Positions 6,781 to 64,000 of a stretch of 64,000 nucleotides of DNA are shown here, piece by piece. The notes under the pieces are model-generated. The model had not been told where the DNA came from and did no database searches. It saw nothing but the letters and a program-made list of their open reading frames with translations. Numbering within the stretch: position 1 is the first letter of the stretch; each line of letters opens with the position of its first letter. A program made the position numbers and the translations under genes. Origin of the DNA: Tubulanus polymorphus (lineage: Eukaryota > Animalia > Nemertea); contig NC_134028.1 of the NCBI RefSeq assembly GCF_964204645.1, forward strand, positions 16,313,653 to 16,377,652, given 5' to 3'.

Positions 6781-7339
6781 CACTATATTTCTATAGAAAT
6801 GATGATATCAACCTATTAAGCTTATCCACCTTATTTCACTAGCTGATCCACATTTAATGTTATGATGTCATGATGGAAGTCAAAACCGCGTCAACAGAAA
6901 TTTTGTAGAATCAAGATTTTGAAGGGTTTCGTCTTCGTAAGCCCAATCCTACCGAACAAAGCGTAAGACCTTGGCGATTTTAAGTTCTTCCGACGCAAAA
7001 GACATTAAATTTTCACATGTGCAATTTTGGACTGTTAAAGATGCTGCATAAAAAACGTGCTCAAATAAATCGAATTTTTGAAACTTTTTGGTAAATTTTC
7101 CAAAAAAATAATATAATAAACCCACGACTTTCAACTTTGCGCACAATGAAGAAAAACCAATTACGAAATATATTTTGCTTAATCTGTTCAATTCGCCCAT
7201 TAGTAGTGAAATTACAGACTAATGAAATTGGGTTTGAGTGTGCTAAAAATTGTATTAAGCATACGAATGATTATCCATCGGCCAGACCGTTGACATAGGC
7301 TTGCTGATGCGAGCCAAAAATATTTCAGGCATTTTTATA

Positions 7340-7870
7340 ATATCTTATTATAAAACGGCACTTTTAATAAAATTCTTCAGAATATTTCTTTAATTTTTCA
7401 ATTAGTCCTTAATCTTAGTTACTTAAGTACCACTGATATTTTGTACAGTTAATATATCTATATACCCCAGCCGTCCCATCCCCATTAAAAAAGCCTATAA
7501 CAAAATACTCTTTTCTTCTAATGAGACAGGTTCTATGTCATAAATATTGTTAATTATTTCATCAAATTATTATATTTCACTTTATTTCATCACCATTGTT
7601 TTTGATTAAACTATGGTCTTCTGTTACATCAAAAACTCCTAATTTAGTTCTAACTCTATATAGTATTCTAATTTTTTAATGCTCATTATATTATTCAATT
7701 TTCTTCCATCCATTTCTTGTCCAAACATCCATTGATCCATTGATCCGTATAAATCAATTTTCACGATGAGAAATACGAAGTTCATTTTGTCTAGGAATTT
7801 CTTCTAAAATTCTTCTTATTAATATTTCATTATTGTATTTTAACAATATTTAAGTATCAGCTGTTACAGA
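7340..7870 (-). pseudogene. Decayed intein (Hint N-terminal blocks A and B plus first LAGLIDADG motif) inserted in motif C of a Maverick pPolB
   Basis: Hand translation gives VEILYFD|SVTADT*ILLK, DVWTRNGWKKI, LYRVRTKLGVFDVTEDHSLIKNNGDEIK and VIGFFNGDGTAGVYRYINCTKYQWYLSN*D*GLIEKLKKYSEE. Confidence 0.85.
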
Positions 7871-8232
7871 ATCAAAATACAAAATTTCAACGTTTTTCTC
7901 TTAAGTATGGTTGTGGAACATCATGATAAAAATCATTCATAAACAATTTGCGAAATTTCTAAAACAGTTTTACCAATGAATATAGGGTTTATTAAATTTC
8001 ATTGCATTTCTCTTTATTTTACTGCTGTTAAATAACCTTCAAATCTTTTATTTCCTAAATGTCTAGGACTTGATTGTAAATGACGTCATCTTTCAGAAGT
8101 TTTTACTAATTCAATATCACTTCTATTTCTAATATATTCACCTGTTTTTCCATAAAAAACAAATATTCATTAATTTAAAGAAATCTTTCTCAAATCAGTT
8201 TTTGAAGTATTTCTCTATTGAGTATTAAAATC
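7871..8232 (-). pseudogene. Older Maverick pPolB remnant (motif B to motif C), downstream of the nested insertion
   Basis: Collinear with 22500-22860: DFNT..R, KDFFKLMN..YGKT.E.IRNR.DIELV, KFNKP..IG..VLE.S, EILYFD. Confidence 0.88.
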
Positions 8233-8588
8233 AGTAATAGGGGTAATAGGCTTTCAAGCCAAAGGTCGAACGGTCGAGCTCGTAAAAATGAAAAACATGA
8301 AAATAATTACAATTTCTACTTGAATTACTTGCGAAACTCATAAAAATGAAAAATAAATTCTCACACACTCGAATTTATTTTTCATTTTTATGAGTTCACT
8401 CCTAATTCAAGTAGAAATTGTAATTATTTTCATGTTTTTCATTTTTTACTCACCCGCCCGTTCAACCTTTAACCTGAAAGCCTATTACCCCTATTACTCT
8501 TAAAATAATCATATACATGAATAACATTTAAATTGACAGATTATTCAATATAAAAGTGTAAGCCCTCATAGAATAGATATATAAATAG
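8233..8588. repeat. Left TIR; 8233-8498 is itself an imperfect palindrome
   Basis: Reverse complement of ~26085-26439. It starts AGTAATAGGGGTAATAGGCTTTCA and has TGAAAGCCTATTACCCCTATTACT ending at 8498, with the hairpin centre at ~8360-8371. Confidence 0.95.
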
Positions 8589-9200
8589 TTATTTTATAAA
8601 TTTATTTTCATATGGAAATTGAAGCGTCAGTAATAATTTTGAACCTTTATTATTCTTTAATTTATTCATATATTCATCATGTAATTCAGTAGGTATAATT
8701 TGATTTTCTTCCAATGATTGTTGCATAGATTTTCTATCTTTATTGAAGAATAAAACTAGAAATCTTATATTCTCCCTAAAGTCTTTAACAATTGAATTAT
8801 ATTTTTGATTTAAAACCCATGTTGTTATCCCAAAATGTCTCCCAGAAAAAGCTAGATAACATAACTCACTTTCTCTCACTTTTGAATCATGTAAATTTGC
8901 GCAATCATCTACAATGAATAATGTATTTGATCCTTTATAAGTATCAATTGCTATTTTTATACAATTATCTAAATTTTCTTTTACTGTTTTAGGATCTAAT
9001 ATAATAAACTTTTTTATCTTAACTATATCTCTATTATATGTTTTATTCATTTCATAAGTTGGACAGAATAATATTATATTATCAAAATGATTCTTATAAA
9101 TAGTTTCTAACAAATCTAATATGAAATGTGTTTTACCACAGTTTGTTACACCAGTAACTAACATATTATGTGGTTCAAATATAAATAAATCTTTATTCAT
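8589..9200 (-). CDS. DNA-packaging ATPase (A32/FtsK-like)
   Basis: Walker A GVTNCGKT, Walker B LFIVDD and the GRH...Q motif of A32-like ATPases; ORF is intact. Confidence 0.92.
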   Translation of the reverse strand: MNKDLFIFEPHNMLVTGVTNCGKTHFILDLLETIYKNHFDNIILFCPTYEMNKTYNRDIVKIKKFIILDPKTVKENLDNCIKIAIDTYKGSNTLFIVDDCANLHDSKVRESELCYLAFSGRHFGITTWVLNQKYNSIVKDFRENIRFLVLFFNKDRKSMQQSLEENQIIPTELHDEYMNKLKNNKGSKLLLTLQFPYENKFIK

Positions 9201-10306
9201 TTATTTTTTTAATTTTACTAGATAAAATCCATTCATTAAATTTATCATCATATCCTTTATATTTCACCAAAGAATACTTTTTTCCTTTAAGAGTTTTTGT
9301 CTTCAATACTTTTCAATATTTTGTATTCTATTTCATCTGGATTTGGTACAAGTGATAATTCTTGTTCATAGAAATAACCTAATATTTCTTCATCTTTTAA
9401 ATCTTCTAATTTATAAACAAATGGTTTAGTTAATATTATCTTTTTAATCTTGAATATTTCTTCTGTAAAATTAAGGGTATAACCTTTATAAAAGGTTTTT
9501 CTATATTTAGATATTCTAACGTGTTGTCCTATTTTAAATTTAGGTTCGCCGAAATCATGTGTAACAAACGCTCCATATAAATTATTCCAAACTATTTCTG
9601 AATTATCTTCTTTTCTAGCTTGTATAGGTTTCATATTTATAGAACTATGTTTAGAATTATTATAACCTTTCACTAAATCATCTAACACATCGATATATTT
9701 ATATGTTTCATTAGCAGTAAAGTATTTCCACATTCTAGTTTTCAATGTTTTATTAAATCTTTCTATAATAGATGCTTTTTTATCTGAGTGTGTTGAAAAA
9801 TAATCTACATCGTTATCAGATAATAGTTTTTTAAAATGTTTGTTATAAAATTCCTTACCTTCATCAAATTGTATCTTATCTGGAATAGCTTCTTTAAATA
9901 TAGATTTAAAAGCATTTGTAACTTCTATTCCAGTTTTATTTTTGATTGCAATTGACCATGCGTATCTACTGAATATGTCTATAACATTTAATATCCAGAA
10001 ATATCCTTTATTATGTTCTTCTAAGTTCTTCATGTCAATTAAATCTGCTTGCCATTGTTGATCGATATATGAAACCATAACTTTTCTTGTTAAATAAGTT
10101 TTATCCATTTTCTTGTGGATTTGATATGTTGGTTGATTTTGTAACCATGATTTTAACTCACTATATTTTATATCACCATGTGGGTGCCATACAGCACCAT
10201 TTTCATTATCAGATTTAATTTTATTCCATAATTCTGAAACGTTAGAATATGATACTTCACTTTCTGGGTTGTAATATAAATCTCTTAAATAATGTTCTTT
10301 TTTCAT
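9201..10306 (-). pseudogene. Retroviral-like (rve) integrase with C-terminal chromodomain separated by a frameshift near 9310
   Basis: Core motifs WQADLIDM, IDIFSRYAW, QFDEGKEF and ERFNKTLK. An alternate frame at 9201-9310 reads KGKKYSLVKYKGYDDKFNEWI (chromodomain). Confidence 0.92.
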
Positions 10307-10312
10307 CTTATT

Positions 10313-10711
10313 TTAATCCATTAATAATAATTTAGATTTAGTTTCAATGGTTTTACGATTTGACTTATTTTCTGGTATGATAGGTTTATTGTCTGAAAAC
10401 GGATAACTAAGTTTCCGATTATCATTGGAATCATCTTTATCATCAGATTTGAATTTTGATTTATATATTACACCGGATAATATAATAATTGTGATTAACC
10501 CAATTGTAATATATAAGTAATTATTACTTCCAGCATTAGAAGAATTAGATGGATTATTATTTGAATCAATATCAGATAAAGTCTGTGATTCATTTATATC
10601 AGTTAATTTCTTTTTCTTTGCTTTTTTTAATTCTGGAGATCTTTTTCCTAATTCTCTTGCCCATTTAATTTGTTTCTCGGATCTAGCCTTTTTCTTAACG
10701 CCATCACTCAT
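10313..10711 (-). CDS. Hypothetical single-pass membrane protein with basic N-terminus
   Basis: Hydrophobic segment YLYITIGLITIIILSGVIY; TAAATG start. Confidence 0.7.
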   Translation of the reverse strand: MSDGVKKKARSEKQIKWARELGKRSPELKKAKKKKLTDINESQTLSDIDSNNNPSNSSNAGSNNYLYITIGLITIIILSGVIYKSKFKSDDKDDSNDNRKLSYPFSDNKPIIPENKSNRKTIETKSKLLLMD

Positions 10712-11306
10712 TTATTTTAGTTAATTTTTGTTTTGATTCATTTTCTGTTTCGCCGTTTGGTTGTAGTACATCTGTTTCGTTCTTACCTGATTTATATTCC
10801 ATAGGTTTGATTTTCGAAAATGTTATGACGCCAGTAGAAATTAATGTCATAACCGATCCTAATTGAAATGAAGCATATCCAACCCATTTTTGTAATTCAG
10901 TCATAACTAAGTAATCATTTTTTAAATCACTATATAATTTATTTTCATCATTAATTGTCATTAACCGGTTACATAATTTTGAATAACATTTTATAATACT
11001 ATCTGAAATAGAATCATTTATTCGAGCCAATCTAGCTTCTTCATAAATCTTAAAATATTTTATTACTTTATCGGGTTTCATAGAGTCTAGTTCTTGAAAA
11101 GTAATGGTCTTAGTTAAAAATTGTTTAGATTTCCAGCCAGCAATTAGTAACTCAAGATGGTGTTTACAATATAAATAGTATTCATAATCAATATTGTTAT
11201 CAACTTGAATAGAATTAGAAACAACTGGATCCTTATTATCACTAATACCCAAATCATCTAATGTTTTTTCAATATCAATACAATTCTAACTCGATTTCTT
11301 TGACAT
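10704..11306 (-). pseudogene. Hypothetical Maverick protein with hydrophobic C-terminal segment; in-frame TAG at codon 7
   Basis: The ATG at 11306 has TAAATG context and is in frame with the 182-aa ORF (MSKKSS*NCIDIEKTLDDLGIS...). Confidence 0.65.
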
Positions 11307-11917
11307 TTATATTAGAGAAATTTAATAAGAAAAATATTATAAGTATTATAAAACTAGATAGTTAAAGTTAAAGAATTCTAGTATTGACTACTGATACTAG
11401 CTATTTGAATTTAAAGAATTTCTATTTGAATCTATTCAAAATATAAAGTATTCTCTTTTTGAAAACAAAGTATTAAAAATATAATAGAATTCACTAGCTA
11501 GTTGAAGTTATTGTTTTTTTATTATATTTTATTTAAATTAGGATTTAGATTATCTCACTACTATTGTTTATCTATAGGAGCAGTAATTATAACTGTCCAG
11601 ATAAGTCATTTCGGATTCTCGATTATAAATCCTAAAACTGAAAATAAATTCAAAGAAACGACTGGTGGAAATACTATTTCATAAACACATATATTTCATT
11701 CTACAATCATTATCGATTTCCACATTCCAAGCCGCTCCTCTCAGGCCCGGTAAGGTATGCGTGGAATGCAGGAATCAATAAAGTACAATACAACATCTGT
11801 CACTGCGATATTAACAATAGCTGAATATAGAATAATGGAAAATGCATTTAGGGTAACCAAATACAAATACAAAAAATCTATATAGTATGAAAAATTGTTA
11901 ACTAAACAAAGAAATCA

Positions 11918-12649
11918 TCATTGGGATTTTATAATTCCGACCAGAATTCTTTGATTTCGGGGTAATTTTTTTCGGGGTAACATTTTTTCGATTTCTGCCA
12001 AATGATTAATAACGGTAGGAAATGGTAAACCAAATAACTGAAATTTTTTAAATGAATATAATTTCCCAATCCCTCTAAGTTTTCTTTCATACCCGACACT
12101 AATATGTATATTTTCTTTAACCCAATTAGCCCATGAAATATTTATAGTTTGAGTCGAATGAAAAAGAACAAACCCTTTATTCAAGGAATTCCCAAAAATT
12201 ATAAAATCCCAAAGATGATTTGTTTGTTTCGTTAACAATTCTTCATACTCGCTTATCAGTAATCCACTAATTTCTGAAAATAAATGCACGTCTATTTCAC
12301 TAAAGTTCGATAAATCTATATGATACAGTAATTTTGATTTTAAATATTCGTGTAGTTCACAACCGCTCAATTTGATTCTATTTTCTCTAAGTCCTAATAA
12401 TGTTTTTAAACTTGGCGTTGGTATTTTTGGTAATTCTTGTATCTTTGATTGTTTGGTTGTAATTACTTCGTCCAAAATTGACACTAAATGTTTATAATAA
12501 TCCATATGTTTCCTGAGTTTTTCGATATTTTTTTCTTCTATATCTATTACAGTTTCTTGTGATGGCGTGTTGACATCCATACATTCTGGCTCCTCACTTT
12601 CTTGCGTTAGATTTGGAGTAGACAGTGGAGTTCTTGATCTGTATGACAT
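11918..12649 (-). CDS. Hypothetical cargo protein (243 aa), possibly helical DNA-binding
   Basis: Long ORF containing W..WVKENI.IS..YERKLR. It lacks the TAAATG start, and its flanks are less AT-rich than the core genes. Confidence 0.6.
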   Translation of the reverse strand: MSYRSRTPLSTPNLTQESEEPECMDVNTPSQETVIDIEEKNIEKLRKHMDYYKHLVSILDEVITTKQSKIQELPKIPTPSLKTLLGLRENRIKLSGCELHEYLKSKLLYHIDLSNFSEIDVHLFSEISGLLISEYEELLTKQTNHLWDFIIFGNSLNKGFVLFHSTQTINISWANWVKENIHISVGYERKLRGIGKLYSFKKFQLFGLPFPTVINHLAEIEKMLPRKKLPRNQRILVGIIKSQ

Positions 12650-13090
12650 TTTTTACTAAATATCTAGAATGTAGAATAAAACTAACTTGAAGTTGTAGTT
12701 GTCAAATATCAATTACAGCACTTAAACATGTTTAACGTTTCCCTGCGTCTTAATAACTACAAAAACAGTACTTACATTTATAACTGTAAACTCCTAATTG
12801 TGTTTCTAGAGAGAAATCTTATACGTTCTATATATTGCGTCTGTTCAGTTCGTATGTTGTAATGCGACTGCACTCAATATACCAGGCACTGTCTGTCTAA
12901 GCAACAGATGTTCCTTTGTGATGTAATTGATTAATCCTTTTCAACTGAAATAGCACATTCGATCAATATTCAAATGAGGTGCGCCCCGATCAACTGAATA
13001 TAACGTGCGACAGATGCTTTTGTAAACAACCTAATACAATTACATATAGGCGGTTTGACATAGATCGAGAGTAACCGGTTTTCTAAGCGC

Positions 13091-13744
13091 TTAAGCTTCA
13101 ACGTATTTTTCATTATGTGTTGAATTCCATAATTCAACAAATGTCTTTGCTTTATCCAGTTGATCTAAATATAACTGTAAATCTAGTTTATTAGATTTAA
13201 TTATGTTTTCCTTCTTTTCTAGAGGCCTTAAATTTTTTCAACTCCAAATAAGTTTTTTATTGTATTCATCATTCATGTTAAATTTAGAAATCGGCAACAC
13301 GTGATCAATATGAAAGTATTCACCATAATTATCTATATTCATTTTATCGTCGAATTGATATATTATCCATGATATGAAAAATTCATCTGTACAACCCAAT
13401 AAATTAGATAGTGTTTCTGAATGTGTTTCTTTGTTGAATAATTGTGTTAATCTAGATCTTAAGCATTGTTTCAATCTAAAATTAAGATTTGTTTGATATC
13501 TTTCTCTCATATATTCTGTCATATAATCATTATAAGCTTCTCTATTATCTTCTCGATATTGTTTGGTATATAGTTTAGTACAAGTTTTACAGCAATATTG
13601 AAAACCATCTTTGCTAATCTTACGCTTACTAAATTCTGTTAAAGCTAATTTATCTAATTCACATTTATAACATTTCTTGTAGTATATATTTATGACACCA
13701 GTGTTATTTGTAATATTGATAATTTGTGGTTGTTCTGGTTCCAT
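13091..13744 (-). pseudogene. HNH endonuclease with N-terminal CxxC...CxxC zinc finger (large-DNA-virus/phage type); premature TGA at 13238-13240
   Basis: KKCYKC...F.K.K.SKDG....CKTC, LLGC, then FHIDHVLP. Reading through the stop gives KNLRPLEKKENIIKSNK. Confidence 0.8.
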
Positions 13745-13907
13745 TTATTATACATATTTTTTTACTAAATTGATTTTAGAAGTTATTCATTTATATGTTA
13801 TTCATGAATATATATGAATTATTTCAATAAAACTTTACATTTTTAATGTTTAAAGATCTAACTCATACAAATATAAATATTGAAATATTTTTAAAATATA
13901 CCTATGG

Positions 13908-13982
13908 ATTAGATACCCTATTAGATACCCTATTAGATACCCTATTAGATACCCTAATACCTGATACCCTATTAGATACCTT
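13908..13982. repeat. 12-bp tandem repeat (ATTAGATACCCT), about 6 copies, in a non-coding spacer
   Basis: Direct reading. The following AATACTTAAAACCCCCTTTTTT block occurs at both ~13984 and ~14202. Confidence 0.85.
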
Positions 13983-14257
13983 GAATACTTAAAACCCCCT
14001 TTTTTTAAATAATTATTATTTATACAATTTTCAACCAATTTATTTTTATTTTTTCAACTAATATATGAATAAGTTTGAAAATAATAAAGGTTATTTATTA
14101 TTACTGAGGTTTCAATTTCCATATGAATATCAGTTTATAAAATAAGATATTTTATGTATTAGATTGTATTAGATATGTATTAGATACCTTAAATACCTTA
14201 AATACTTAAAACCCCCTTTTTTAAAATAAATATTATTTTTACAATTTTCAACCTTTA

Positions 14258-15137
14258 TTACTTTTTTGAGTTAAATATAATTAATATCTTAATCACTTTC
14301 ACTATCAGACCCCCTAACAATTTATTCAAATGCTCTATCGAATCTTCTTCTAATTCTTCATTATTTTTATGCTTATTCTTCACCCATTTTACCGCATCAT
14401 CAATAGTTGTTTCATTGTTATGCTTATTCATCCAATCAAATTTATCATTATTTTCTACTTTATGTTTCATAGAATCTTTATTATCAATATCTGTAACTAT
14501 ATCACCATGTGGGTGCCATACGGCGCCATTTTCATTATTATCTTTATTAGTGTTTGCTCCTAATATTTCATTTACAATGTTTGATCCTAATATTTTATTA
14601 GCATCGGTTAAATTCATCTTTATTAGGTGTTGCTAATAATAAATCTTCATATAATTCTTTACCATTTACTTTTTTATTTGAAACAAACTTTGTAACATAT
14701 CTAAATGGGTGTTCTATAAATTCTCTTAAACCAGCACGTTCTATTACATTAGTAATATGTACCCTTGCATTCATATGTTTATTCCAATTTGATGGAGCGT
14801 TTGAAAATTCACCTTTACAATCACAATAATTTCTTTTTTCACTAATATTTAATATTATTTCATTATTTGATGTAGAAGGTATTACATTATTAGATGTAGA
14901 AGGTATTACATTATTAGAAGTAGAAGGTATTACATTATTAGATGTAGAAGGTATTACATTACTTAAATTATCAACAACTTCACTTTTATTATTATCTATT
15001 TCTATTAGTTTAGTTTTATAAATTTTGAAAATAGGATCAAATATCAAAGCTATATTACAAGGTATTACATAATATAAACCATCATTATTTTCATGTGTAT
15101 CGATGTATGGAATATGTTTATATACTTTACCTTCCAT
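14258..15137 (-). pseudogene. Hypothetical protein, probably one gene split by a frameshift at ~14610; contains a 27-bp (NVIPSTSNN) repeat, about 4 copies
   Basis: Overlapping ORFs 14598-15137 and 14258-14617; tandem repeat at ~14862-14962; C.C...H....H zinc-finger-like motif. Confidence 0.6.
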
Positions 15138-15169
15138 TTATTATATACATTTTTATTAAAGTTGAAATT

Positions 15170-16410
15170 TTAATACATAACATTATTTAATTGAGAATTT
15201 ACAATATTTAATTGCGCGTCAGATATAATATAAATGTGCATTTTAAAATTTTTGATTCCTTTATTCTTTGTCATGAATAATTGTATTCCATCTTTAGTGT
15301 TTTGTAGTTTTTTTCCAGAACCATGTAATGAATTATCCTCTGTTGTTCTAAAATCTAACCATAATGCATATTTATTACCGGTATAATAATAAATTTGATT
15401 AATATTACAATTTTCAGATGATTTTACTTTTTCATGTTTTCTAATTTCTGGCCATTGATCTATCATTCTCATTCCTTGACAAAATATTTTATTTGCTATT
15501 CCTTCGATAGTTATTTCTACTTTTGTTATTTCAGGATTATAATAATTATCAACATTTATTGCGCCATTAGTATATGTTGCAATGGTAAAAAATATTAATA
15601 TACCTTTAATAGATCTTCTTGGGAAGTTAATATTCTCATTAATTATTTCATCATTTGCATTAATAGTTACAGGTTTAAATTTATCAATATAATCATATAA
15701 TAATGAAAATCCTTGATTGTATTGAGTTTGAATTATACTTGAAATATTTTCATCAGTTACTGTATCATATTCTAAACATATATTCGATAATTTATAACTC
15801 ATATCTTTATTTACGCTAGATATATTGCAATTTCATTAACAGGAGCAAATGTTATTTCGAATATAACATCTTCTTGAATTGCGTATTTATATAAAGGTGC
15901 ATTGTTATTTATCAATTCAAAGTCTAATGGGATTTTATATTTGCTTCCATATATACTTTTTATCAATTTATCTATAGCATTAGTTAATATTGCATTATGT
16001 GTTTCTGATCTTAATTTATTTTGGTTTTCTGATTGGATTCCTTGAAATATCATGTTATTTCTATTTTCTTTAGTTAACCATAAATCTTTATAATGCATAA
16101 ATAAATTATAATCATCTAATGAGAAAACTGTTTCTGGGCCGATCTTTATTGTTAATTTTTTAATCAAATATCTTCCAACATTATCAACAACATAATTATT
16201 TTTATTACCGGTTACTTTTATATCGGCTGATAAATAAATACTATTTGGAACGTAAAAAGTATTTTGTGTTAATCGAGGGATTCTAACATATAAAGTTTCA
16301 TCGGGATTAATATTAGAAGGGTTATGAGTAATTATATGATGTGATCTTTCTGCTTTAATAGCATTAGATATTCTATGATTCTTAGAAGGATTGATATAAC
16401 TCCCACTCAT
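15170..16410 (-). pseudogene. Major capsid protein (double jelly-roll/hexon-like), split near 15805
   Basis: About 410 aa combined and beta-rich (ITHNPSNI.....LYVRIP, IKKLTIKIG, LSNICLEYD, YALWLDFRT..DN.LHGSG, YIISDAQLNI). Size and position fit a Polinton MCP. The assignment is from family recall, not from a search. Confidence 0.75.
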
Positions 16411-16430
16411 TTATTTAAAAAAAAAATTAA

Positions 16431-17891
16431 TTATTTATTTTTTATCATGTTTACTAATCCAAAATTAATTGCACTTACAACTGTAATTAAAAATAAAATA
16501 ATATGTTCAGCAGCAAAGTTAATAATGTTTCCTGCAGATTTCAATATAAAACCAACAATTGATGCAATAATTCCTGGTAATGCTGCAGCAGATTTTTTAG
16601 ATAGTTCCCATAAATATTTTGCAAATTTCTTTAAACCATCCTTAACTTTATCTTGTATAGAATTATTATCATTCGGGGGTTTATCCGGTTTATTGGGAGT
16701 AGGTGTAGATTTCAGTGAATTTGATATTGCTAAACCAATTGTTGTAAATAACATAGTTACAGCTGTTAGAATTGAAAGAATTGTTATTCCTTCTAATTTA
16801 AATAACAATTTTATTCTATCTGTTAATGATATTTCAGAATCTGGTTTTATCAACAAATCTTTAAAAATAACTTTTAATCTATTAATATTATAATCATATG
16901 ATTTTAATAATAATTTAATTTCTTCTTTTTGTAATTCTATGTTATATCCTAAATCATCTTTTTCTTTTTCTAAATATGCATTTCTTTTTTTAAATTCTAT
17001 TTCTTCAATAACTTTATTATCTCTATCTAATTTTAGTTGTTCCGATTCTTTTCTTGATTTAAATAATTCATCTTCTAAAGTTCTGATTTTTAAATCTCTT
17101 ATACTTTTATCATGCGCAATTTTATCAGATGCATGTCTTATACTTTCAATTTCTCTAATTACTTTATCAGAAAATATATCTAAATCTTCTAATTCTTGAT
17201 CTGTTGCATCAATTAATCCATTCGGTAAAAGTTTTTCAATTGGAACTTTATTTGATTTAAGTTTACTAGTTTTGGAAGTTTTATTCTGTTCAGAAGTTGT
17301 TTCTGTTTCTGAATTTTTATTGATTATTTTTAATAAGTCATCAATTCTTTGACTAAATTCTAGTATATTATCCTCTCTTTCTTCTTGTGTAACATCAGTT
17401 ATTTCATTACTATTACTTATTCTCTTAATTCTAAATGTTTCTAAATTTTTCAAAGTTGATTCCGCTAATATTTTAGTTAGTCTTGTCCTTTGATTAGTGA
17501 TATCAATATAATAATCACCATCCAAATTATAATAATATTTACCTTTAAAAAGTTTTAAATTTTCTACTAAAATTCTGGCGCCTCTATCATTTATATTATA
17601 TCCAGATTCTTCAAATACATGTGGGAACTTATATATAAATTTATAATTTTCTAAATCTTGTCTTGATAAACCTTGATTTTCATTTTCAGGAGGTATTCTC
17701 GATCTAGTTCTTCTATCAAATTAATCTGTTGATGGGGCTTTAGAACCACTATCTGCTAAATTAGAATTATATGCTGATTCATTACCATCATCAATATTAG
17801 TTTCTGCATCATTATAATCATCATCAATATATCCCTCATTATTATTTCCCATTTCTCCCATTTCATAATCTTCTCCACCTTCTACATCCAT
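16431..17891 (-). pseudogene. Coiled-coil protein with 2-3 C-terminal hydrophobic segments; N-terminus disrupted
   Basis: The ATG at 17891 (MDVEGGEDYEM) has TAAATG context. The 364-aa ORF has a heptad-rich region followed by ITILSILTAVTMLFTTIGLAI, LPGIIASIVGFIL and IILFLITVVSAINFGLV. Confidence 0.7.
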
Positions 17892-17906
17892 TTACATAAT
17901 AAAGAA

Positions 17907-19294
17907 TTAAAATCTTAAATATAATATTCCTCCGATTACAATTCCTATACAAGTTAAAGCTAATTTAGCATTTTCATGGGATTTATTATCATCATTTAGT
18001 TTAATTATTTCATGTTGAATATTATCAGTTCTAATATTTTCTGATGTATTGTAATATTTTATTTTAGAATCATTATTTAATTTAATATTATTAGTTTTAG
18101 TTTCTGTTGATTGAATATGTTTTTTATTTTTTTCACCTTCCATTAATTTTGGAGCAGTAATAATCTCTTTATTTATATCATTTAATCCAAATGAATTATT
18201 TATTGTTGCAGTTTTAATTAGATTATTGTAACCAATTATGTTTCCCATCTTTAATACTAAATCATTAGAAATAATAAATAGATTAGGGCCTATACAATAA
18301 TTTAATCTAATATGTGATTTATCTAAATAATTTTGATATCTTACAATGTTTTCTGGAATCGATCTATTTTTATCATTATGAATGGAATCTTCAAATAATA
18401 CTTTGAATTGTTTCTGTGTATCAAATGATGTATTTAAATTTCCAATTATTGGGGATCTTGTTTCAACCTGTGATCCTAGAATACATATCAAATAAGTTCT
18501 AATAGATTTATTTATTCTTTCTATACCTGATTTAGTAAAACCTTCATTATTTTCTAAAATGAAATAAACCCAACCATTATTGTTTTCTTGTTTTAAATGA
18601 TCATAAAATTTCGGTAATTTATTGAAATTTAATGTTCCCAAATCCTTAGTTTCTATTTTACCATAACCTAATTTATTATTATAGATATTATTAAAACTAT
18701 TAGATGGTATGGGAAGTGCACAATATTCTGCAATCTTTTTAGGGCAAGGAAGTGATCTTATTGTTCCAATTTTTGTTCTAAAATCAGAATATTTATATCT
18801 ATATTAAATTCATTACAAATTTTATAAAACTTTGATAAATTAATATTATTATCTAATTCTTTAAAATATCTAGATCCTGGCAAAGCGCACTCTAATTCAT
18901 TTAATATTATTCTGATTTGAAAGGTTGTATGAAATCTAAATAAACTTTAAATTAATTTATATTTAGAATTATTCAAATGATCATTCCAACTAATTCCACA
19001 ACCTGTTGTTGCACAATAAACAGCAAAATTTAATTGGTTCTGCCAATACTTCATATTAGATTTTAATAACCATTGTTTTTCATCTTTCAACTTTTTATAA
19101 TTAATTAAATAGACATGAAATATATTTTCCATCTTTGCATTAAAATTATTAGTTTCAGTAACATAAATTTCTAAATTAGTTAATGAATCTAAAACTTCAT
19201 TTCTATATGTAATATCTTTATTAAAATCTATTGCTGGAATATTATATTTAATTGATTTATTATATTGGAAAGCTTTTGGAAAACTATCTGCCAT
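17907..19294 (-). pseudogene. Conserved Maverick protein with C-terminal membrane anchor, frameshifted
   Basis: ORFs 18947-19294 (WQNQLNFAVYCATTGCGIS) and 17907-18641 (ends LALTCIGIVIGGILYLRF). A homologue lies at ~61195-62575. Confidence 0.7.
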
Positions 19295-19321
19295 TTATAT
19301 AATTAAAAAATTGATAATTTA

Positions 19322-19748
19322 TTAATTCTTTTAATAATTTTTTTATCTTGTTCTTCAACTGTTATATGGCCATTTAAACTTATTATATAATCTAGTGTAT
19401 TTTTTAATTTATTAATTTCTTTTATATTAGTTTTAATTTTTCTTTATTACTTTTTATATTCAATTTTGAACTTATACCAGTTAAAACACTTGAACTTAAT
19501 CCTAATACACCAATTGATATAGCTAAAGGTGTTAATGGACTGAATATTGCAAAAAATGTTATTACAGAACTAATTGTAACCGAACCACTGATAATAAGAT
19601 CATATATAATTTTAGATTTTAAATATTTTTTCTTTTTTATCTTTAAGTCACTTTCAAATTCTAATATTTGTTTTTCTAAATATGTTTTTAATTTAGTTTT
19701 ATTTATATCATGAGGAATAATATCAATATTATCAACTTTATCATCCAT
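19322..19748 (-). pseudogene. Small two-TM membrane protein, frameshifted near its C-terminus
   Basis: IYDLIISGSVTISSVITFFAIFSPLTPLAISIGVLGLSSSVLTGIS. The homologue at 62603-62881 supplies the C-terminus. Confidence 0.65.
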
Positions 19749-19769
19749 TTATTTAGCAAAAAAAAATTA

Positions 19770-20192
19770 CTAATTAGTAAACTTATAAGCAACAAATATA
19801 ACAATAACAGTTCCACCTAAAATCCATATTATTTCATATTTCTGTTGTTCTTTACTTGGGGTATAATAATCTGATAATTTAGGTTTGTATAGATGTAATT
19901 TTTCTTTATTGGTTACCGCGTTATATAAACTCATTGCATCATCAACTGATTGAAAATCTCTATGTGAAATCTTCTGACCATATAATTCTTTGTTAATATA
20001 ATCCATATAGTTTTGCCTCTTTTCTCTATATTCTTCTGCTGCTTTATTGTATTTCTCTAGTGCTAAGTTATGTCTTCTTTGTTCTCCTAATGAACTATTT
20101 TTATCAATATGCTTAAATAAATAACCACCACCAGTAAATGCGAAAGCGTTAACGATTGCCGATCCTATAATAGTTATAATTGCAGAAGCCAT
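19770..20192 (-). CDS. Small membrane protein with hydrophobic N- and C-termini
   Basis: MASAIITIIGSAIVNAFAFTGGGYLF...RRHNLALEK...IIWILGGTVIVIFVAY. Confidence 0.75.
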   Translation of the reverse strand: MASAIITIIGSAIVNAFAFTGGGYLFKHIDKNSSLGEQRRHNLALEKYNKAAEEYREKRQNYMDYINKELYGQKISHRDFQSVDDAMSLYNAVTNKEKLHLYKPKLSDYYTPSKEQQKYEIIWILGGTVIVIFVAYKFTN

Positions 20193-20216
20193 TTATTTAG
20201 CAAAAAAATTATGCAT

Positions 20217-20438
20217 TTATATGGGAGGAATATATTTTTGTTTTTCCAAATAATCAATAGTTAAATTAGATAAAGTAACTGCTAATGTTAATTTTAAAAT
20301 ATCATTTATATCAAATCTATCAACATTAACACTTCCCATTTTGAATACTTTTTTTAATACCATTGAATAACCAACAGTTCCAACTGATAGTAATGCTCCA
20401 TTATATAATCCAGTTATTATCCACTTATTATCACTCAT
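20217..20438 (-). CDS. Small hydrophobic protein (73 aa)
   Basis: Intact ORF with TAAATG start; homologue at ~63025-63243. Confidence 0.7.
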   Translation of the reverse strand: MSDNKWIITGLYNGALLSVGTVGYSMVLKKVFKMGSVNVDRFDINDILKLTLAVTLSNLTIDYLEKQKYIPPI

Positions 20439-20795
20439 TTATTTATCAAAAAAATTACTATCATCAAAATATTTAGTTAACTTATTTATGATTAATTCAA
20501 CATTTATTTCATTACTAGTTTCAATTGTATATATTTCAATTATTATTTTTTTAATATCATCTATAATAAAATCTTCATCTAATTCATAAAATCTTAAAGA
20601 TTCTCTAAATAAATTAGTAATCTTTTCTACATTTAAAGTTTCTTTATCTATTGTTGTTCCATACTCAAATGTTGTTTCATTAGAAAATGCAATATTTTTA
20701 ATATGTGTAATTACATCATTAATGTTAAATTTCATTTCTTTCTCATGTTTAAAATCAAACCCAAAACATATACTCGGTCCAACAGTTATATTCAT
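20439..20795 (-). CDS. Hypothetical acidic protein (118 aa)
   Basis: Intact ORF with TAAATG start; homologue at 63340-63579. Confidence 0.7.
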   Translation of the reverse strand: MNITVGPSICFGFDFKHEKEMKFNINDVITHIKNIAFSNETTFEYGTTIDKETLNVEKITNLFRESLRFYELDEDFIIDDIKKIIIEIYTIETSNEINVELIINKLTKYFDDSNFFDK

Positions 20796-20811
20796 TTATA
20801 TAGTGAAAAAA

Positions 20812-21567
20812 TTACTCTCTACATCTTATAACTAATTCATATATCACAGGAAAGTTATTCAAATCAATTAAATAACCATTATGATTTCTTATTTCTAATT
20901 TGAAATTATTGAAATGTGGAATGCAAGGTTTAAAATCACATTCTGTTAAATTATAATTTATTTGAGTTCCAAATTGTTTGACGTTTTTTAATGGTAAAAT
21001 ATTTAGTATACTAGAACTACAAATTGTTTCTTTAGTAGCTTCGAAAGTTTTTGTAGGCTCGATTAAATTGCAATAAATATAAAAGTGTGTAAAAGGTATT
21101 ATATTTGAGCTGCCTTCTGCGTTTCCAGTAACTCTAAGCGGTTTAATTCCTAACATTTTAGCCAGTGGTTTGTTTACCATAAATTTATGTTGTTCATTAG
21201 ATATCTTTATTCTAATTTTATTAGTACTATCAATTTTATTAAATTTAATTTCAAATACAGAAGTACCCCCGATCTTCAACCGAGCTCTTCTATTAATTTC
21301 CTGCGCTAATGATTCTAAATTATATAATCCTGGTTTTAAAAATATATGAAACCATTTATCTTTATTTCTCATATAAATCATAAACCCTCTATGTTCAAAA
21401 GTTTTATCCGATATATTATAAATTGAGTTACATAAACTTATATTTACTAATTTTAAATCAACACAATTTTTATATTCTCTATCTAATTGTACTAGTAAAT
21501 TATGAGATTTATAATTTGTAAGTCTTCTAGAATCTACAAATATTCTGTATTCTTTTAATTCCGCCAT
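20812..21567 (-). CDS. Minor capsid protein (penton, single jelly-roll)
   Basis: IFVDSR, S.YNI, PGLYN...L...IN, FYIYCNLI and LEIRNHNG.LIDLN match Polinton/virophage penton patterns. Confidence 0.8.
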   Translation of the reverse strand: MAELKEYRIFVDSRRLTNYKSHNLLVQLDREYKNCVDLKLVNISLCNSIYNISDKTFEHRGFMIYMRNKDKWFHIFLKPGLYNLESLAQEINRRARLKIGGTSVFEIKFNKIDSTNKIRIKISNEQHKFMVNKPLAKMLGIKPLRVTGNAEGSSNIIPFTHFYIYCNLIEPTKTFEATKETICSSSILNILPLKNVKQFGTQINYNLTECDFKPCIPHFNNFKLEIRNHNGYLIDLNNFPVIYELVIRCRE

Positions 21568-21589
21568 TTATTTTACATATTTTCTTATT

Positions 21590-21938
21590 CGAAATCTATT
21601 TCATGGTGCCCTTTTTCATTCTTACCTTTGTATACGAAATATAAATCTCCAGAACATAATTCTTCTTAGTCTTCACTTGATAATCTATGAAATCTATCCG
21701 GTAAATATGTTCTGAATTTATATGTATTTCCTTTTAATCCTTCATATTCTAAGTGTATAACTAATTTATCTCCATATTTGTTAGTAACTGTATCAATATT
21801 TGTAAATAGATATTTCTTATGGATTGTTAATTCTTTTAACTTCTTAAATTTATAATCTACTGATTTGACATTTGATGTATCTTTTATTCTATCTAGAAAT
21901 AATTTGTTGTTCTCACTGTTTGCTTGTTTACTCTCCAT
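21590..21938 (-). pseudogene. Small Maverick protein, possibly an OB-fold ssDNA-binding protein; premature stop at ~21666
   Basis: FKKLKEL....KY.......V.NKYG...VI.L...YLP.RF pattern, located next to pPolB. The fold call is an inference. Confidence 0.5.
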
Positions 21939-21967
21939 TTATAATACATATTTTTATCAAAATTTGA

Positions 21968-24900
21968 TTAACACGTTAGAATTCTTTTCATTATCTCGTT
22001 CTCTTTTGTTTCTTCTCTTTTAAATTTTAAGTATTCATCTAAATTACAACCATAAGCAACTGTATGAATTCCATCATCTAATATATATCTTTTATCATCA
22101 AATGGGTTTAGACTTATCTTTTCAATTTCTTCAATAAATATTTCATGATCTTCAGATCTTAAACATTTCATCTTATGTTTTCTAACTTCTTCATTGAATA
22201 TACAATTGATGTAATCTTTGAAATAAATATTCTTTTCTACTACACTTTTGGTTATTCCTTTTAACTTTTTAGCTTCATGTTCTTTAGTTTTATATGAATA
22301 CATTTTAGATCTAATTCCTATGAACTCTATCATTTCTTCACCACCTAATTCATCTTTGAATTTACCGGGAACTTTTTTATTATCATCGCTAAACAATTCA
22401 TGATCTTAAGGATAGTTACTGAAATCAAAATGATGTTTTAATGTTTTTAAATCATCAGTTATGTTATCAGTTTGTATCTTTAATATGTAAGAATCGGTAT
22501 CAAAATATAATATTTCTATATGTTTTTCTCCAAAAAGTGGTTGTAATACATTATAATAGAATTCATACATTAGTAATTTTGATAATTCTAAAACTGATGC
22601 TCCAACATAAATTGGTTTATTAAATTTCATAGAAGTTCTTCTCATCTTAACTGCAGCTAAATTTTCATCAAATATTCTGCTACCAATGAACTTAGGATAT
22701 GTTTGTAAATGCCTAATTCTTTTACCATTACTGACTAACTCAATATCATTTCTATTTCTAATATTTTCACAAGTATTACCATAGAATGCATTATTCATTG
22801 ACTTGAAGAAATCTTTCTCGAAATCAGTTTTAGCTTCAGTTCTCTGTTTGGTGTTAAAATCTATATATTTTTCTAACCACTTAGATTGACTGAATGAAAT
22901 AAATCTATGTACTTTTTTAGAATCATTCCTTCTTTTAGATAAAACTTTAACATTCTATAATGTACTACATAATTATATTTATCTTCCTGAGTTACCATTA
23001 ACTTTTCTGTATGAATATTATTTTCGGGTTTAATTCTTTTTCGATAACTTGATAATTCTTCATGAGTTACAGTTTTATGTTCGGGACAGTAAGCTAGATT
23101 TCTAGATTTAAATTTAATATGTTCAGGATATTCTAAATCTACAACAAAGAAGTAATCAGTATCTGAATTATCTGCAATATCGAGAATTCTTTTCTTCCAA
23201 TCAAATTTATCATTATTTTCATTCTATAAAACTTCACTTATTTCAAATACTCCATAAGGTTGTGGTTCCATCATTGCCCAACCATACAAATAATTTGCAT
23301 CTATATATAATAACTTATATCCAGGGTTATCATTTACATTGAAATATCTATCGCCTAATACACCTGAAACTCCTCCTCTTATAGATTTTTCAAATAATAA
23401 TAATAGATCTATATTTGTTAACAAATCCATTTTTATATCTGTAAATTTTAATCCACAATCCCATGTTAAACCTGGGCTAGAAAAACAATGACAAGGATCA
23501 ATATTGAAATATTTTAGGTTTACATCTCTAAACCTTTCGAATATATCGGTTAATAATAATAAATCTGATTTTAGATATAAATCTAATTGCCCATGATTTT
23601 CTATTTTGAAGTGATTCCAAATATTCAATGTTCTATTATAGACTTAATCTTTAACATATTCATTTTTTAATTCATCATAGAATTGTTCTTTTAATAATTC
23701 AGTTATATTAAAATCATTATGATTTTTATAGAAAGAATATGGAATTGCGCCTTTATATCTCATTAATTGAAAATCATCATTATTTGGGTAATATTCTTTT
23801 AATATTTTTAATTCATCATCAACTAATGATTTTGATAAGTTATCTAATGAACTATTTAAAAATCTATATGAATCTATAAATCCTAGACACCCAAATTGGA
23901 ATGATATATAATTCTCAGATGTTTAAGCTAACATTCTAAATTTATAAGTTGGTATTTTATCTTTTGATCTATTTGAATTTAATTTTTCTATTTCATTATT
24001 AATTTCTTCAATTTATGGCATAACTGTTTGATAAATAAATGAGCATCATATCCTGATAGATTATGAAATATAACTGATACAAAGTTAATTTTCATAGCTT
24101 GTAAGTTACAATTCTCATGTGCAGCGCCTCTAAACTTTCCATTCAAATGATCATGGTCTCTTACTTTTTCATCTCTAAAATTAAATATCTTTTCACAATA
24201 ATAACATTTATCTGCAAACGCAAATTCTTCTTTATCTTCTTCTGTCATTATAATTTCTATATTTGTATTCAATAATTTACTAAATCTTATTTCATATTCA
24301 ATTAATAAGTCACAAAAATGATTGATAACATTTTCATTTCATAATATTCACTTTCAATTAGTTCTGGATAATCAGATTCAATATATAACCCGAAAGCTGC
24401 AGCTGATTGATGAATCTTTTTAACAGTATAATCTTGATCAGTTAGTTCTTTATTTAATGATTCAAAATCTCCATATATATAACAAATGGAACTTTATTTT
24501 TGTAATCATATTTTTTGAATTCTAATATTTTATCCTTTTCATTTGGTAAAACTAATTTACAATAATCATGATTTTCACATAATTGTTTATGATTTAATAA
24601 TGTACTTTCATTACTGAATTAATGTAAACATTTTCTACATAGATATATTTTATTATGGTGATCACTTTCTGTTCTAAAGAATAAATCTATTTTTTTAATC
24701 CACATATAATGATTCTCATAATATAATACATCTATAACATCGTTTGAATCATAATCTTTTGATAGATATAAAGGTTCTAATGTATAATGTTTTATATTGT
24801 TACCTTTTGTATTTGGTAATTTGATTAAATCAAATACATTTATCTTTATATTATTATCTCTTTCTATTTTTGGGATGTTTTTAATTATAACAGGATACTT

Positions 24901-25940
24901 ATCTATCTTGTAATTATTTTCAAATTGTTTATAATGAGTTAATCTAAAACTATGTTGTTTATAATCTTCAACTGGGTGTAAACAACTTATTATAGCCCAT
25001 AGAAAACATTTATCATCTTCATTTTGTACATTTATTACAGCATTAGTTTTAAATGGTAGTTTAATATAACTCGATGCTTCAATATCTGGTTCTTTATAAT
25101 ATGATACATTATTTTCATCAATTGGTTTTGATTTAGTTAATTTGGTTTTTTGACTTATTATATTTTGTGTTATAAACATGTAAAGTCATAAATATTATTT
25201 CATCAAATATTAAACCAGATCCTTCAAAATATTTCTCTTCTATTTTAGTTTTTACTTCATTATAACATTTATCTAATTTATCATCTATATGTTGTTTAGA
25301 TATAATATGTTGTGAATGAGAATTTATATTATATATTGGTTTATCTTCAGATTTTATAAACTTTACTTAAGAAGATATACTAATTTTAGGATATTCAACA
25401 TCAGTTATTATTTTTATTATTTCTTTCATATTTTCTAAATGTTTTTTATTTTCTTCTAATGTTTTTCCTTTATGAAATTTAAACTCAATAGCTGCTGGAC
25501 CAATATCACTTTTAAATGCTTCGGTTATCTCTATATCGTTTTTATTATCTAATGAATTAATATATTTTCTTACATCTTCCATGTATGGTCTTTTATTGTT
25601 TAATTTATTTTTTTATGTTTTTAATTGTCTTCTGTTTCTTATCATTATCTTTATCAAAATAATCTTCACCTAAAATATCATTATTCTTATTTCTAATATG
25701 ACTTTTAGATTTTAAATGTTCTTTATAATATCTTTTATCACTGAATGATTGATTACATGTATCACATTTGTGTGTTTCTTTTTCATTCTTTAATTCATCT
25801 AATTTAGTTTCTAATATATCATCTTCATATTCTAGTTTCAATTTATTCTCTAAATGTGTTTTAGTTTTATTGTGTCTTGCTTTTTGGGATTTATCTATAT
25901 TGATATTACATGTTGGACAGTAGTACTTATTTGCTTTCAT
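21968..25940 (-). pseudogene. polB: Protein-primed family B DNA polymerase (pPolB) with several frameshifts and stops
   Basis: N-terminal C2H2 fingers; vOTU-like DDKCFLWA...HY; ExoI IYGDFES (~24470); endonuclease VII-like RDHDHLNG.FRGAAH..CN; ExoII FHNLSGYD; motif A YIDANYLYGWAM; motif B MNNAFYG; motif C YFDTDS; KLKGI. Confidence 0.95.
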
Positions 25941-26084
25941 TTTAATATCAAATTTTTTTAAAAATTGATTTTAGAAGTTCAATGATTTATATCATGTATT
26001 ATTTCAATCACATTTTACTAACACTTTTAATGTTTAAAAATCTAACTCATACAAATATAAATATTGAAATAATGTTGTAAATAT

Positions 26085-26439
26085 ATCTATCTATATATTC
26101 TATAAGAGCTTACACTTTTATATTGAATAATCTGTCAATTTAAATGTTATTCATGTTTATGATTATTTTAAGAGTAATAGGGGTAATAGGCTTTCAGGTT
26201 AAAGGTTGAACGGGCGGGTGAGTAAAAAATGAAAAACATGAAAATAATTACAATTTCTACTTGAATTAGGAGTGAAACTCATAAGAATGAAAAATAAATT
26301 CGAGTGTGTGAGAATTTATTTTTCATTTTTATGAGTTTCGCGAGTAATTCAAGTAGAAATTGTAATTATTTTCATGTTTTTCATTTTTACGAGCTCGACC
26401 GTTTAACCTTTGGCTTGAAAGCCTATTACCCCTATTACT
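26085..26439. repeat. Right TIR; 26173-26439 is an imperfect palindrome
   Basis: Near-exact reverse complement of 8233-8588 with a few substitutions. Confidence 0.95.
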
Positions 26440-26445
26440 AAAATC

Positions 26446-27575
26446 TATATATTTTTCTAACCATTTCGATTGATTAAATTCAAATAAATCTATGAACTTT
26501 TTAAAACTCCATTTGCTGATATTAATACTAACATTCTAACATTCTGTAATGAACAATATGATTATATTTATTATTTTGTGTGAATAGTAAATTTTCTGTA
26601 AAAACGTGAACTTTTGATATTTTTCTGATATTCGCTATAACTATCATCTAGGTAATATATCGGGACAATATGGTAGATTTTTAGATTTAAATTTTATTTC
26701 ATCATGATATTCTATATCAACTTAAAAGACATAACCAATTGGAGCGTGGTCTTTTAATTGCGCCTTCCCAATCGGTTTTATCATCATTTTCAACTTCTGT
26801 TAATATGAAATCTTTTTTGGTTGATAATGCATCATTGCCCAACCATATAAATTATATGCATCAATCTATAATACTTTATATTCATCATTTGCTTTATAAT
26901 GTCTATCTCGCATAACACCACTAATTCCACCACGAATCGATATTTCTAATAATAAAACCATATCGGGATCTTTTAATAGATCTTATTCTACATTTGTATA
27001 TTTCAAACTACATTGCCAGGCAAAACCAATACTTGAATAACAATAAAAAGGATTAACAAAAATGATTTATTATAACTTCTCTAAATTTTTTAAACATATC
27101 TTCCAGAATAACTACATCCGATCTTAAATATCAATCAACTAATTCAACATGATTTTCCATTTCAAAATGATCCCAAATATGTAATGTTCTATTAAAAACT
27201 TCACGTTTTACATATTCATCTTTTGATTGATTCTAAATTGTTCTTTTAATAATTCTGTTACTTAAAAAAATCATCATGTGTTTCATAAAATGAATAAGGA
27301 ATTGCACCTTCATGTCTTAATAATTTAAAATCTTGTTCATTTGGTTTATAATATCGTAATATTATAAAATCATTATAAACAAAATTCTAAAAGAATCTAA
27401 AAAAATCTAAAACAACCAAATTTATACGAAATGTTATTTTCAGATGTTTTTGCTAATAATTTGAAATCATTTTTTCATCATTATAGCGTTGTATTCTTCT
27501 ATTTCTTGGTTAATCACACCTAATATTCCGGATAATTGTTTTATGAATAAACGAGTATCATATCATCATAACTCA
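26446..27575 (-). pseudogene. Older Maverick pPolB remnant (exonuclease to motif A), upstream of the nested insertion
   Basis: SIRGGISGV..DR and IDAYNLYGWAM. WLEKYI|DFNT is continuous across the TSD with 8232. Collinear with 22860-24060. Confidence 0.88.
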
Positions 27576-39512: not shown

Positions 39513-39622
39513 GCGACCTTAAGGCTTTAGTATGGTGGCTGATAAGATAAAAAAACACGAATATGCAAATGAGGGCGACATTACGACAAAACGACAAAAC
39601 TAAAATAACGCGAGAAAACAAT

Positions 39623-41393: not shown

Positions 41394-41394
41394 A

Positions 41395-42524: not shown

Positions 42525-42820
42525 TGGTTTTGTCGCCCGCGACAATTCATTATTTTGGTTTTGTCGCACGCAACAATTCAATAGTTTGTTTTTGTCGTCC
42601 GCGACAATTCATTATTTTGGTTTTATCGCCCGCAACAATTCAATATTTTGGTTTTAACGCCCACGACAATTCATTATTGTGGTTTTATCGCCCGCGACAA
42701 TTCATTATTTTGGTTTTATCGGCCGCGACAATTCATTATTTTTGTTTTGTCGCCCGTGACAATTCAATATTTTGGTTTTGTCACCCGCGACAATTCATAA
42801 TTTTGGTTTTGTCGCCCGTG
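42524..42820. repeat. Short 31-bp satellite array; duplicated at 43338-43634 and 54018-54280
   Basis: Same unit and the same variant order in the three copies. 42426-43238 and 43239-44052 form a ~814-bp tandem duplication. Confidence 0.9.
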
Positions 42821-63895: not shown

Positions 63896-64000
63896 TACAT
63901 GTATCCTCATTTTGTTTCAGCTATCACTTAAAAAAAATCAATAATAAATCCGACATCAACACCCATTTTCAACCAAGCCTTTCTATAAATTTCTTGCGCT

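Follow-up and report, generated by a model that had tools for sequence, protein, structure and literature searches.

The 64,000-nt stretch of contig NC_134028.1 of the nemertean Tubulanus polymorphus analysed here (the window) contains, at positions 8233-26439, an AT-rich island with a GC content of 24%, as compared with ~38% across most of the window. A preliminary description, made from these letters alone, read this island as a candidate virophage-like Maverick that is transcribed by a large DNA virus serving as its helper. The island is a dead copy of an abundant, integrating 18-kb Polinton-like virus (PLV). It is bordered by terminal inverted repeats (TIRs) of ~355 nt at 8233..8587 (+) and 26084..26439 (−), with a complementarity of 97-98%, and by a target-site duplication of 6 bp, AAAATC, at 8227..8232 and 26440-26445. 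Each TIR opens with an imperfect palindrome of 267 nt (8233-8499 and 26173-26439), which folds at −102.9 kcal/mol (z −22), whereas none of 100 shuffled sequences folds equally well. The palindrome is present in the same form at both ends of the copy in a flip/flop comparison, in which short reads did not phase the arms. The AT-rich imperfect hairpin termini of the preliminary description were thus correctly recognized. They are weak or uninformative as evidence for a helper, because terminal palindromes are already known from protist virophages and PLVs, namely those of Halocafeteria (10.64898/2026.07.28.741278; this and the other papers are cited from portions of their text).

The element contains 17 curated genes, all on the minus strand. 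A metagenome scan provides 44 family loci for comparison (L with a number; L045-L048 are control elements), 28 of which contain at least one complete start anchored by homology. Next to the left TIR lie the genes for an A32-like packaging ATPase (8589..9200; PF04665, E 3.7e-12), the open reading frame (ORF) of which is open, and for an rve integrase (9287..10306; PF00665, E 1.3e-9), which starts with TAAGATG, has a shorter C-terminus than its relatives and contains a small in-frame insert. These genes are followed by those for a conserved 132-aa protein with one predicted transmembrane (TM) segment (10313..10711) and for a conserved protein of ~200 aa (10704..11306), the latter broken near its 5' end. 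An accessory 243-aa ORF (11918..12649) does not start with TAAATG and has no homologue in any of the 44 loci. Its read depth is low, and therefore it is present in few copies. The HNH endonuclease gene (13091..13744) has an internal stop, and the segment upstream of it (13744..13905, −) is 76-78% identical to the one preceding the pPolB gene (25941-26090). The gene for the major capsid protein (MCP; 15170..16410) is split over two frames, and a variable gene after it (14258..15137) is in two pieces. An insert of ~49 nt is shared in frame by the integrase gene (10169-10217) and the gene after MCP (14498-14546), and is absent from the integrases of relatives.

Between the MCP and pPolB genes lie the genes for a conserved ~485-aa protein with C-terminal TM segments (16431..17891) and a conserved ~440-aa protein with a C-terminal TM segment (17907..19294), both interrupted, a two-TM SLATT-like protein (first open piece at 19422..19748; the L001 homologue matches PF18142 below the cutoff, E 1.3e-3), a conserved 140-aa protein with two predicted TM segments (19770..20192), and a conserved 73-aa hydrophobic protein that is below the TM threshold used (20217..20438). 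The ~440-aa protein has no match in a PDB profile search, and its predicted fold is poor (pLDDT 39). TM segments are predicted in five genes of the element, in agreement with the membrane-protein cluster claimed earlier. A 118-aa ORF (20439..20795), a minor capsid (penton) candidate (20812..21567; matched to the putative L046 and L047 pentons by hhalign at 93.7%, E 1.9e-7) and a 90-aa ORF (21666..21938) follow, the last of which may resemble small OB-fold-like Maverick proteins. The pPolB gene (21968..25940) starts with AAAATG and encodes zinc fingers and an endonuclease VII-like domain (PF03175, E 1.7e-8; PF02945, E 7.5e-6).

Tight packing on one strand, another claim of the preliminary description, is observed in the window, where 13 of the 16 intergenic gaps are shorter than 100 nt, but it is not a family trait, because genes lie on both strands in the relatives L002-L004 and L017. 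At 14060..14145 (+), a remnant of the ATPase 3'-end in reverse orientation, together with the gene order in L002-L004, suggests that the left arm of this copy is inverted, the remnant being a likely inversion scar. The one-strand layout is therefore copy-specific and uninformative for a helper. The family probably lacks introns, as judged only from the ORFs of intact relatives, which are co-linear.

The pPolB gene is broken into 12 stop-free pieces, and the MCP, HNH and several other genes are also interrupted, indicating that the copy at 8233-26439 is degenerate. It is nested within the pPolB gene of an older copy, the left piece of which (7270..8232, −) contains pPolB motif C and a decayed intein (~7270-7870), and the right piece of which (26440..27450, −) shows ~70% nucleotide identity. 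A third, more decayed sibling (56550..64000, −) retains the integrase, MCP and membrane block at ~78-81% nucleotide identity, is split by other insertions and is truncated at the end of the window. In a DNA run that carries the same species label, 84,608 of 12,895,792 reads (0.66%) map to 7300-26000 at ≥85% identity, and >1800 reads run from the terminus into varied flanks. The read depth, near 600 in 1.93 Gb, would correspond to ~300 family copies per Gb of host genome. Thus, rather than forming a dedicated array, the three copies comprise a nested insertion and a neighbour within a family of many dispersed sites. Their presence in one locus is rejected as evidence for a helper. A role of 8233-26439 as an antiviral reservoir, which the preliminary description had suggested for the copies in the locus, is untenable, because the copy is too broken. 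The three local copies are all decayed.

TAAATG starts all window genes other than the integrase, accessory and pPolB genes, namely 14 of 17 (background 0.061 per ATG, p 6e-15), as was claimed before. This signal extends to the relatives. The pooled count, which leaves out the near-duplicates L003, L013, L023 and L029, the window itself and loci without a complete anchored start, gives TAAATG at 64 of 69 homology-anchored starts from 20 loci with GC contents of 20-44%, and at 33 of 35 starts from the 11 loci with GC contents of at least 33%. The loci with TAAATG are spread over at least three MCP branches, down to ~35% identity. The signal is bipartite. T is present at −12 in 58/64 starts as compared with 32/116 non-start TAAATG sites (p 7e-17), TTT is present at −14 to −12 in 39/64 starts as compared with 6/116 non-start sites, and the spacer between the T element and TAAATG is 8 nt. 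A purine directly follows ATG in 68/70 starts, and T is present at −3 in 93% of starts. TAA doubles as the stop of the upstream gene in only 2 of 58 cases, indicating that the signal does not represent translational coupling. Within the window, TTT occupies −14 to −12 in the membrane and capsid block, whereas an A-run ending in T is present in the penton, HNH, ATPase and a few other genes. The bipartite start signal resembles the vaccinia late promoter, in which a T-containing core lies 5-7 bp ahead of TAAAT(G/A), and the two upstream classes may recall the late and intermediate promoter classes of vaccinia (PMC5294985). A conserved large-virus-type promoter motif before most genes, which is a mark of a virophage lifestyle, is present in the family.

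The reading of the preliminary description is not refuted by the comparison of TAAATG frequencies that it had proposed with AT-matched Mavericks, TAAATG being more frequent in the family than in canonical ones. This comparison is made with three of the control elements, L046 (1/14 starts), L047 (0/19) and the rve element L048 (1/9), of which L046 and L047 encode a protease and one, L046 with a GC content of 29%, is near the family in AT content. Other branches of the lineage (L012, L014, L015 and L025), which were grouped after their starts had been seen, have TAAATG at 0/18 starts, including 0/10 in the three at 29-31% GC. At 15 of these 18 starts, TATA(A/G) or TAGA is located ≤16 nt from the ATG, as counted with a loose pattern without background. 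This TATA-type motif recalls the late motif TATATA of African swine fever virus and pacmanvirus (PMC5294985, PMC11788076), and may indicate another helper. In 80 mostly giant-virus loci that bear inteins, TAAATG is present at 87 of 816 starts and reaches 50% in 0 of 64. L045 (L045:1-9754), a 9.7-kb pPolB element in a giant-virus bin, has TAAATG at 4/6 starts and a common upstream motif, indicating that the motif is not unique to the lineage.

Thirty-two intact relatives of MCP were found, and an alignment of 30 of them is predicted to fold as a double jelly roll (pTM 0.80). The best structural matches of the predicted fold are capsids of nucleocytoplasmic large DNA viruses (NCLDVs) and virophages, at ~8-14% identity, and it resembles NCLDV capsids at least as closely as those of mavirus and Sputnik. 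The L001 MCP has no match to PF21738, while the L046 MCP matches it at 1e-16, and hhalign of the family MCP against the L046 and L047 MCPs, a two-sequence profile, gives 0.1%. Six-frame translations of the window and of the 44 family loci, most of which are partial, contain no match to the L046/L047 profile of the adenain-type protease. The capsid module is assigned to the PLV type because of the lack of a Maverick-MCP match and of an adenain protease. The family shares pPolB, the rve integrase, TIRs and the 6-bp target duplication with Maverick-Polintons, and a double-jelly-roll MCP, a penton candidate and an A32 ATPase, all divergent from those of Mavericks, with PLVs. Thus, the element combines a capsid module of PLV type with a pPolB and rve integrase of Maverick type, and the label 'Maverick' given to it earlier fits its pPolB, integrase and TIRs but is imprecise for its capsid. 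The combination of a virophage-type MCP and a cysteine protease is not seen in the family. The lack of a maturation protease, which had been counted in favour of a helper, holds for the window and the 44 loci, but is uninformative and is rejected as such evidence. Protease loss is common among PLVs, and a cysteine protease is encoded by mavirus-type virophages and entomopoxvirus PLVs (PMC11296320, PMC10120064). The lineage is large, as 1372 clusters at 50% identity are related to one core gene, that of the ~440-aa protein. The cluster records give no eukaryotic host, and the only names in them are Bartonella assemblies, which are probably contaminated with host DNA. IMG/VR scans with MCP, ATPase and the window's pPolB type detect no family member. 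Two types of pPolB alternate in the family, one in L017, L023, L024 and L029 and the other in the window and L006, and the same intein is present in both (P0154).

The intein in the older, sibling copy, also claimed in the preliminary description, is located at the PolB motif C site and matches TIGR01445 of NCBIfam above the curated cutoff (E 2.5e-5). Pfam and PDB sequence searches give no match to it. The N-terminal splicing region and LAGLIDADG-like motifs are seen in this decayed intein, and the C-terminal block is not found. Closest to it is P0154, an intact pPolB that carries a complete intein, at 44-48% identity, and the next relatives are inteins of NCLDV-type PolB, topoisomerase II and one large-phage-like PolB. 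The intein family comprises ~740 stretches in IMG/VR, mostly in NCLDV-type PolB and topoisomerase II. In an intein tree of 50 rows, no starred support is present around the window sequence, and no donor is assigned. Intein invasion of polinton pPolBs has been suggested from homing-endonuclease inserts (PMC11161782). The HNH endonuclease had been called a large-virus type. This assignment agrees with the structural neighbours of an intact relative, which are dominated by NCLDVs (TM-score 0.61-0.65), and with the four best IMG/VR relatives, which are NCLDV-like contigs, but not with the feature neighbours, which are dominated by phages. In the 21 HNH loci, TAAATG is present at 17/301 starts. A close relative contains a deoxynucleoside kinase gene (L001:10343-10981; PF01712, E 1.7e-31), and L012 contains a weak VLTF3-like match (E 6e-4). 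The intein and HNH gene indicate that genes have been exchanged with large viruses, but do not indicate the place of replication.

These results are best explained if the element belongs to a virophage-like lineage that is transcribed by the RNA polymerase of a large DNA virus, a reading we hold to be probable with some reserve. The lineage-wide, GC-independent and bipartite vaccinia-like start signal argues for the helper-driven transcription proposed in the preliminary description; no helper has been identified. Within this reading, a pox-like helper, which may be cytoplasmic, is the favoured candidate. A helper would be the simplest source of transcription, because the family proteins that were scanned against Pfam give no match to RNA polymerase, TBP or TFIIB. 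A co-infecting large DNA virus that uses poxvirus-type promoters would transcribe the element genes with its late machinery, which would start inside TAAAT and add a 5' poly(A) leader through slippage. Host ribosomes prefer a purine at −3, and a templated T at this position is a poor context for translation. T may be kept at −3 because a poly(A) leader made by slippage would replace the templated sequence. Slippage at TAAAT/TAAAN is documented for the polymerases of vaccinia and yeast cytoplasmic elements (PMC6211774). Intact genomes would be copied by their own pPolB within or close to the factory of the helper, where the intein and HNH gene could have been picked up, and would be packaged there in double-jelly-roll capsids, to which the TM proteins may add an inner membrane. 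They would enter the germline by rve integration and then mostly decay. Intact copies would act as virophages of an animal, and the TATA-type branches would match a different helper. Known virophage-helper pairs are marked by shared promoter motifs. Endogenous mavirus-like elements (EMALEs) differ in motif among types, and only those with the late motif of Cafeteria roenbergensis virus (CroV) reactivate (PMC10945749).

Several results weigh against transcription by a large-virus helper. Members of the intein family are also found in a large-phage-like PolB and in contigs that are prasinovirus-like or of pandoravirus size, prasinoviruses and pandoraviruses being viruses with a nuclear phase. 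The other 17 of the 21 HNH loci are unclassified, several of them looking phage-like, and no large-virus contig dominated by TAAATG is present among the 80 intein and 21 HNH loci, which do not include poxviruses. The NCLDV early motif AAAATTGA is not enriched, being present upstream in sense of 0/26 window ORFs. The start signal does not account for the expression of early genes, since pPolB and integrase start with AAAATG and TAAGATG and AAAATTGA is lacking. The poxvirus early terminator TTTTTNT is depleted in ORFs, but A6 is depleted too, so that this depletion is not specific. Fixed motifs near ATGs need not mean a helper, because the canonical Maverick L047 (L047:1-15597) also has one, an A-run and TATAAAA located a few nt before most ATGs. 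Genes of a coral polintovirus are expressed, and no helper is reported in the text (PMC11131425).

The last two points also suit an autonomous nuclear virus, in which a conserved protein, such as that of the 118-, 200- or 440-aa gene, directs host RNA polymerase II (Pol II) to the T-rich element and TAAATG, and the NCLDV-type genes result from occasional co-infection. No function is assigned to several core genes, access to the nucleus is well established as a requirement of rve integration, and TsV-N1 is a nuclear lytic PLV (10.64898/2026.06.19.733378). However, TAAATG as a TATA box would place the Pol II start inside the ORF (geometry from PMC5294985 and general knowledge), and TAAATG as an initiator would leave an untranslated region of 1-2 nt with the −3 T noted above. 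No TBP or TFIIB match was obtained among the proteins scanned, and no inteins are known in animal nuclear genes. We therefore regard an autonomous nuclear virus as unlikely, while taking it seriously. Less likely still is that a formerly helper-dependent virus now spreads mainly as a self-synthesizing transposon, which has inherited its promoters and in which only pPolB and integrase still matter. Hundreds of dispersed copies also fit transposon-like spread, as do the share of reads mapping to the element, the diverse flanks at its terminus and the decay of all three window copies, and TAAATG is lacking from only three genes, among them pPolB and integrase. Nevertheless, in relatives with intact ORFs the signal has been retained at the capsid and membrane genes despite deep divergence, indicating continued selection in the lineage, and the integrase starts with TAAATG in L002 and L017. 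It is highly improbable that the TAAATG starts result from AT richness, from the packing of genes or from the way in which ORFs are called. The element is AT-rich, and the rule of taking the first ATG after a stop slightly favours TAA-ATG, but an AT artefact is ruled out by the 33/35 starts at GC ≥33% and the 0/10 starts in AT-rich sister branches, and the fixed T at −12 and the rarity of abutting stops also refute a by-product as far as the loci examined go.

Other features of the window and the related loci are as follows. Internal palindromes are located after the ATPase gene or between convergent genes in three relatives (L001:9082-9359, L002:3684-3875 and L004:3183-3255). They may be hairpin terminators, like those of mimiviruses, or a terminal junction. 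The window contains 31-bp satellite arrays and a 155-bp repeat with duplicated spacers at 39600-54300, and a 2.4-kb element at 29805-32173, the 234-nt inverted repeats of which are 97% complementary. Reverse transcriptase matches at 1698-2552 and 27824-28423 represent host retrotransposon fragments, and further fragments are located at 55244-56112 and 58332-59282, one of which splits the sibling copy. We assume from their appearance that the fragments at these four sites resemble LINE and Penelope elements. C2H2 zinc-finger genes flank related loci such as L028.

The family resembles mavirus and the endogenous EMALEs with CroV in its rve integrase and pPolB, its many endogenous copies, its shared promoter motif and the specificity of motifs for types (PMC10945749). 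It differs from them in its non-virophage MCP, in the lack of a detected adenain protease, in its motif of poxvirus rather than CroV type and in its animal host. The entomopoxvirus PLVs AHEV_PLV1/2, CBEV_PLV1 and Ca_PLV1, which are proposed poxvirus parasites, are likewise small double-jelly-roll animal viruses with mosaic replication modules. Compared by description, they are unlike the family in that they are ~12 kb long, all contain a cysteine protease and none contains rve (PMC11296320). The main text of that paper never mentions 'promoter', 'TAAAT' or 'intein'. A non-Maverick capsid module is shared with outliers among animal PLVs, which include cnidarian MCPs outside the Maverick cluster (PMC10120064), Polinton-3_NV and N1A_NV (PMC11296320), coral elements near PLVs (PMC11131425), and octocoral, hydrozoan and bivalve Aquintovirus-like ATPases (10.64898/2026.06.19.733378). 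Judged from their descriptions, these outliers are probably of the same or a neighbouring lineage, and no promoter, intein or helper is described for them in the text examined of these four papers. Group 1/2 Maverick-Polintons (Polintoviricetes, adintoviruses) have in common with the family TIRs starting with AGT, the 6-bp duplication, pPolB, rve, ATPase and a related penton. In contrast, the family MCP does not match PF21738, a protease, PLA2 and a mu-like gene are not detected in the family, and the family has more TM proteins and a different start motif. The helper-dependent PLV Gezel-14T (PgVV) has tightly packed genes in one orientation, like the window element, and these genes are monocistronic, but its early motif AAAATTGA, tyrosine recombinase, TVpol and algal host distinguish it from the family (10.1101/2022.07.28.501842). 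The yeast cytoplasmic virus-like elements pGKL1/2 also have pPolB, and slippage at their TAAAN initiator produces 5' poly(A) leaders. An RNA polymerase and a capping enzyme, neither of which is detected in the family, are encoded by these elements, which lack a capsid and an integrase (PMC6211774).

A literature search, which did not cover most subscription journals, found no paper describing a TAAATG/TAAAT signal in polintons, mavericks or virophages, one query matching a paper on yeast plasmids and another on aphid small RNA, and the main text of the coral paper does not contain the word 'promoter' (PMC11131425). The lineage has probably been glimpsed in print already, and its promoter signature was not found there. 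Whether animal Mavericks and their relatives are autonomous viruses, transposons or virophages is an open question, and the lineage-wide promoter makes the question of animal virophages directly testable. The intein, located in a pPolB embedded in an animal genome, is a record of gene traffic with giant viruses. Tentatively, and with more doubt than confidence, the large lineage of animal-embedded PLVs, with >1300 protein clusters for one core gene, may be virophages whose promoter types record their helpers, TAAATG pointing to undiscovered pox-like viruses of invertebrates and the TATA type to asfarvirus-like viruses, and whose intact germline copies would provide an inducible defence in the style of mavirus. 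If transcription by a large-virus helper is true, the promoter motif would serve as bait for unknown pox-like viruses of invertebrates, and endogenous virophages would extend from protists to animal germlines.

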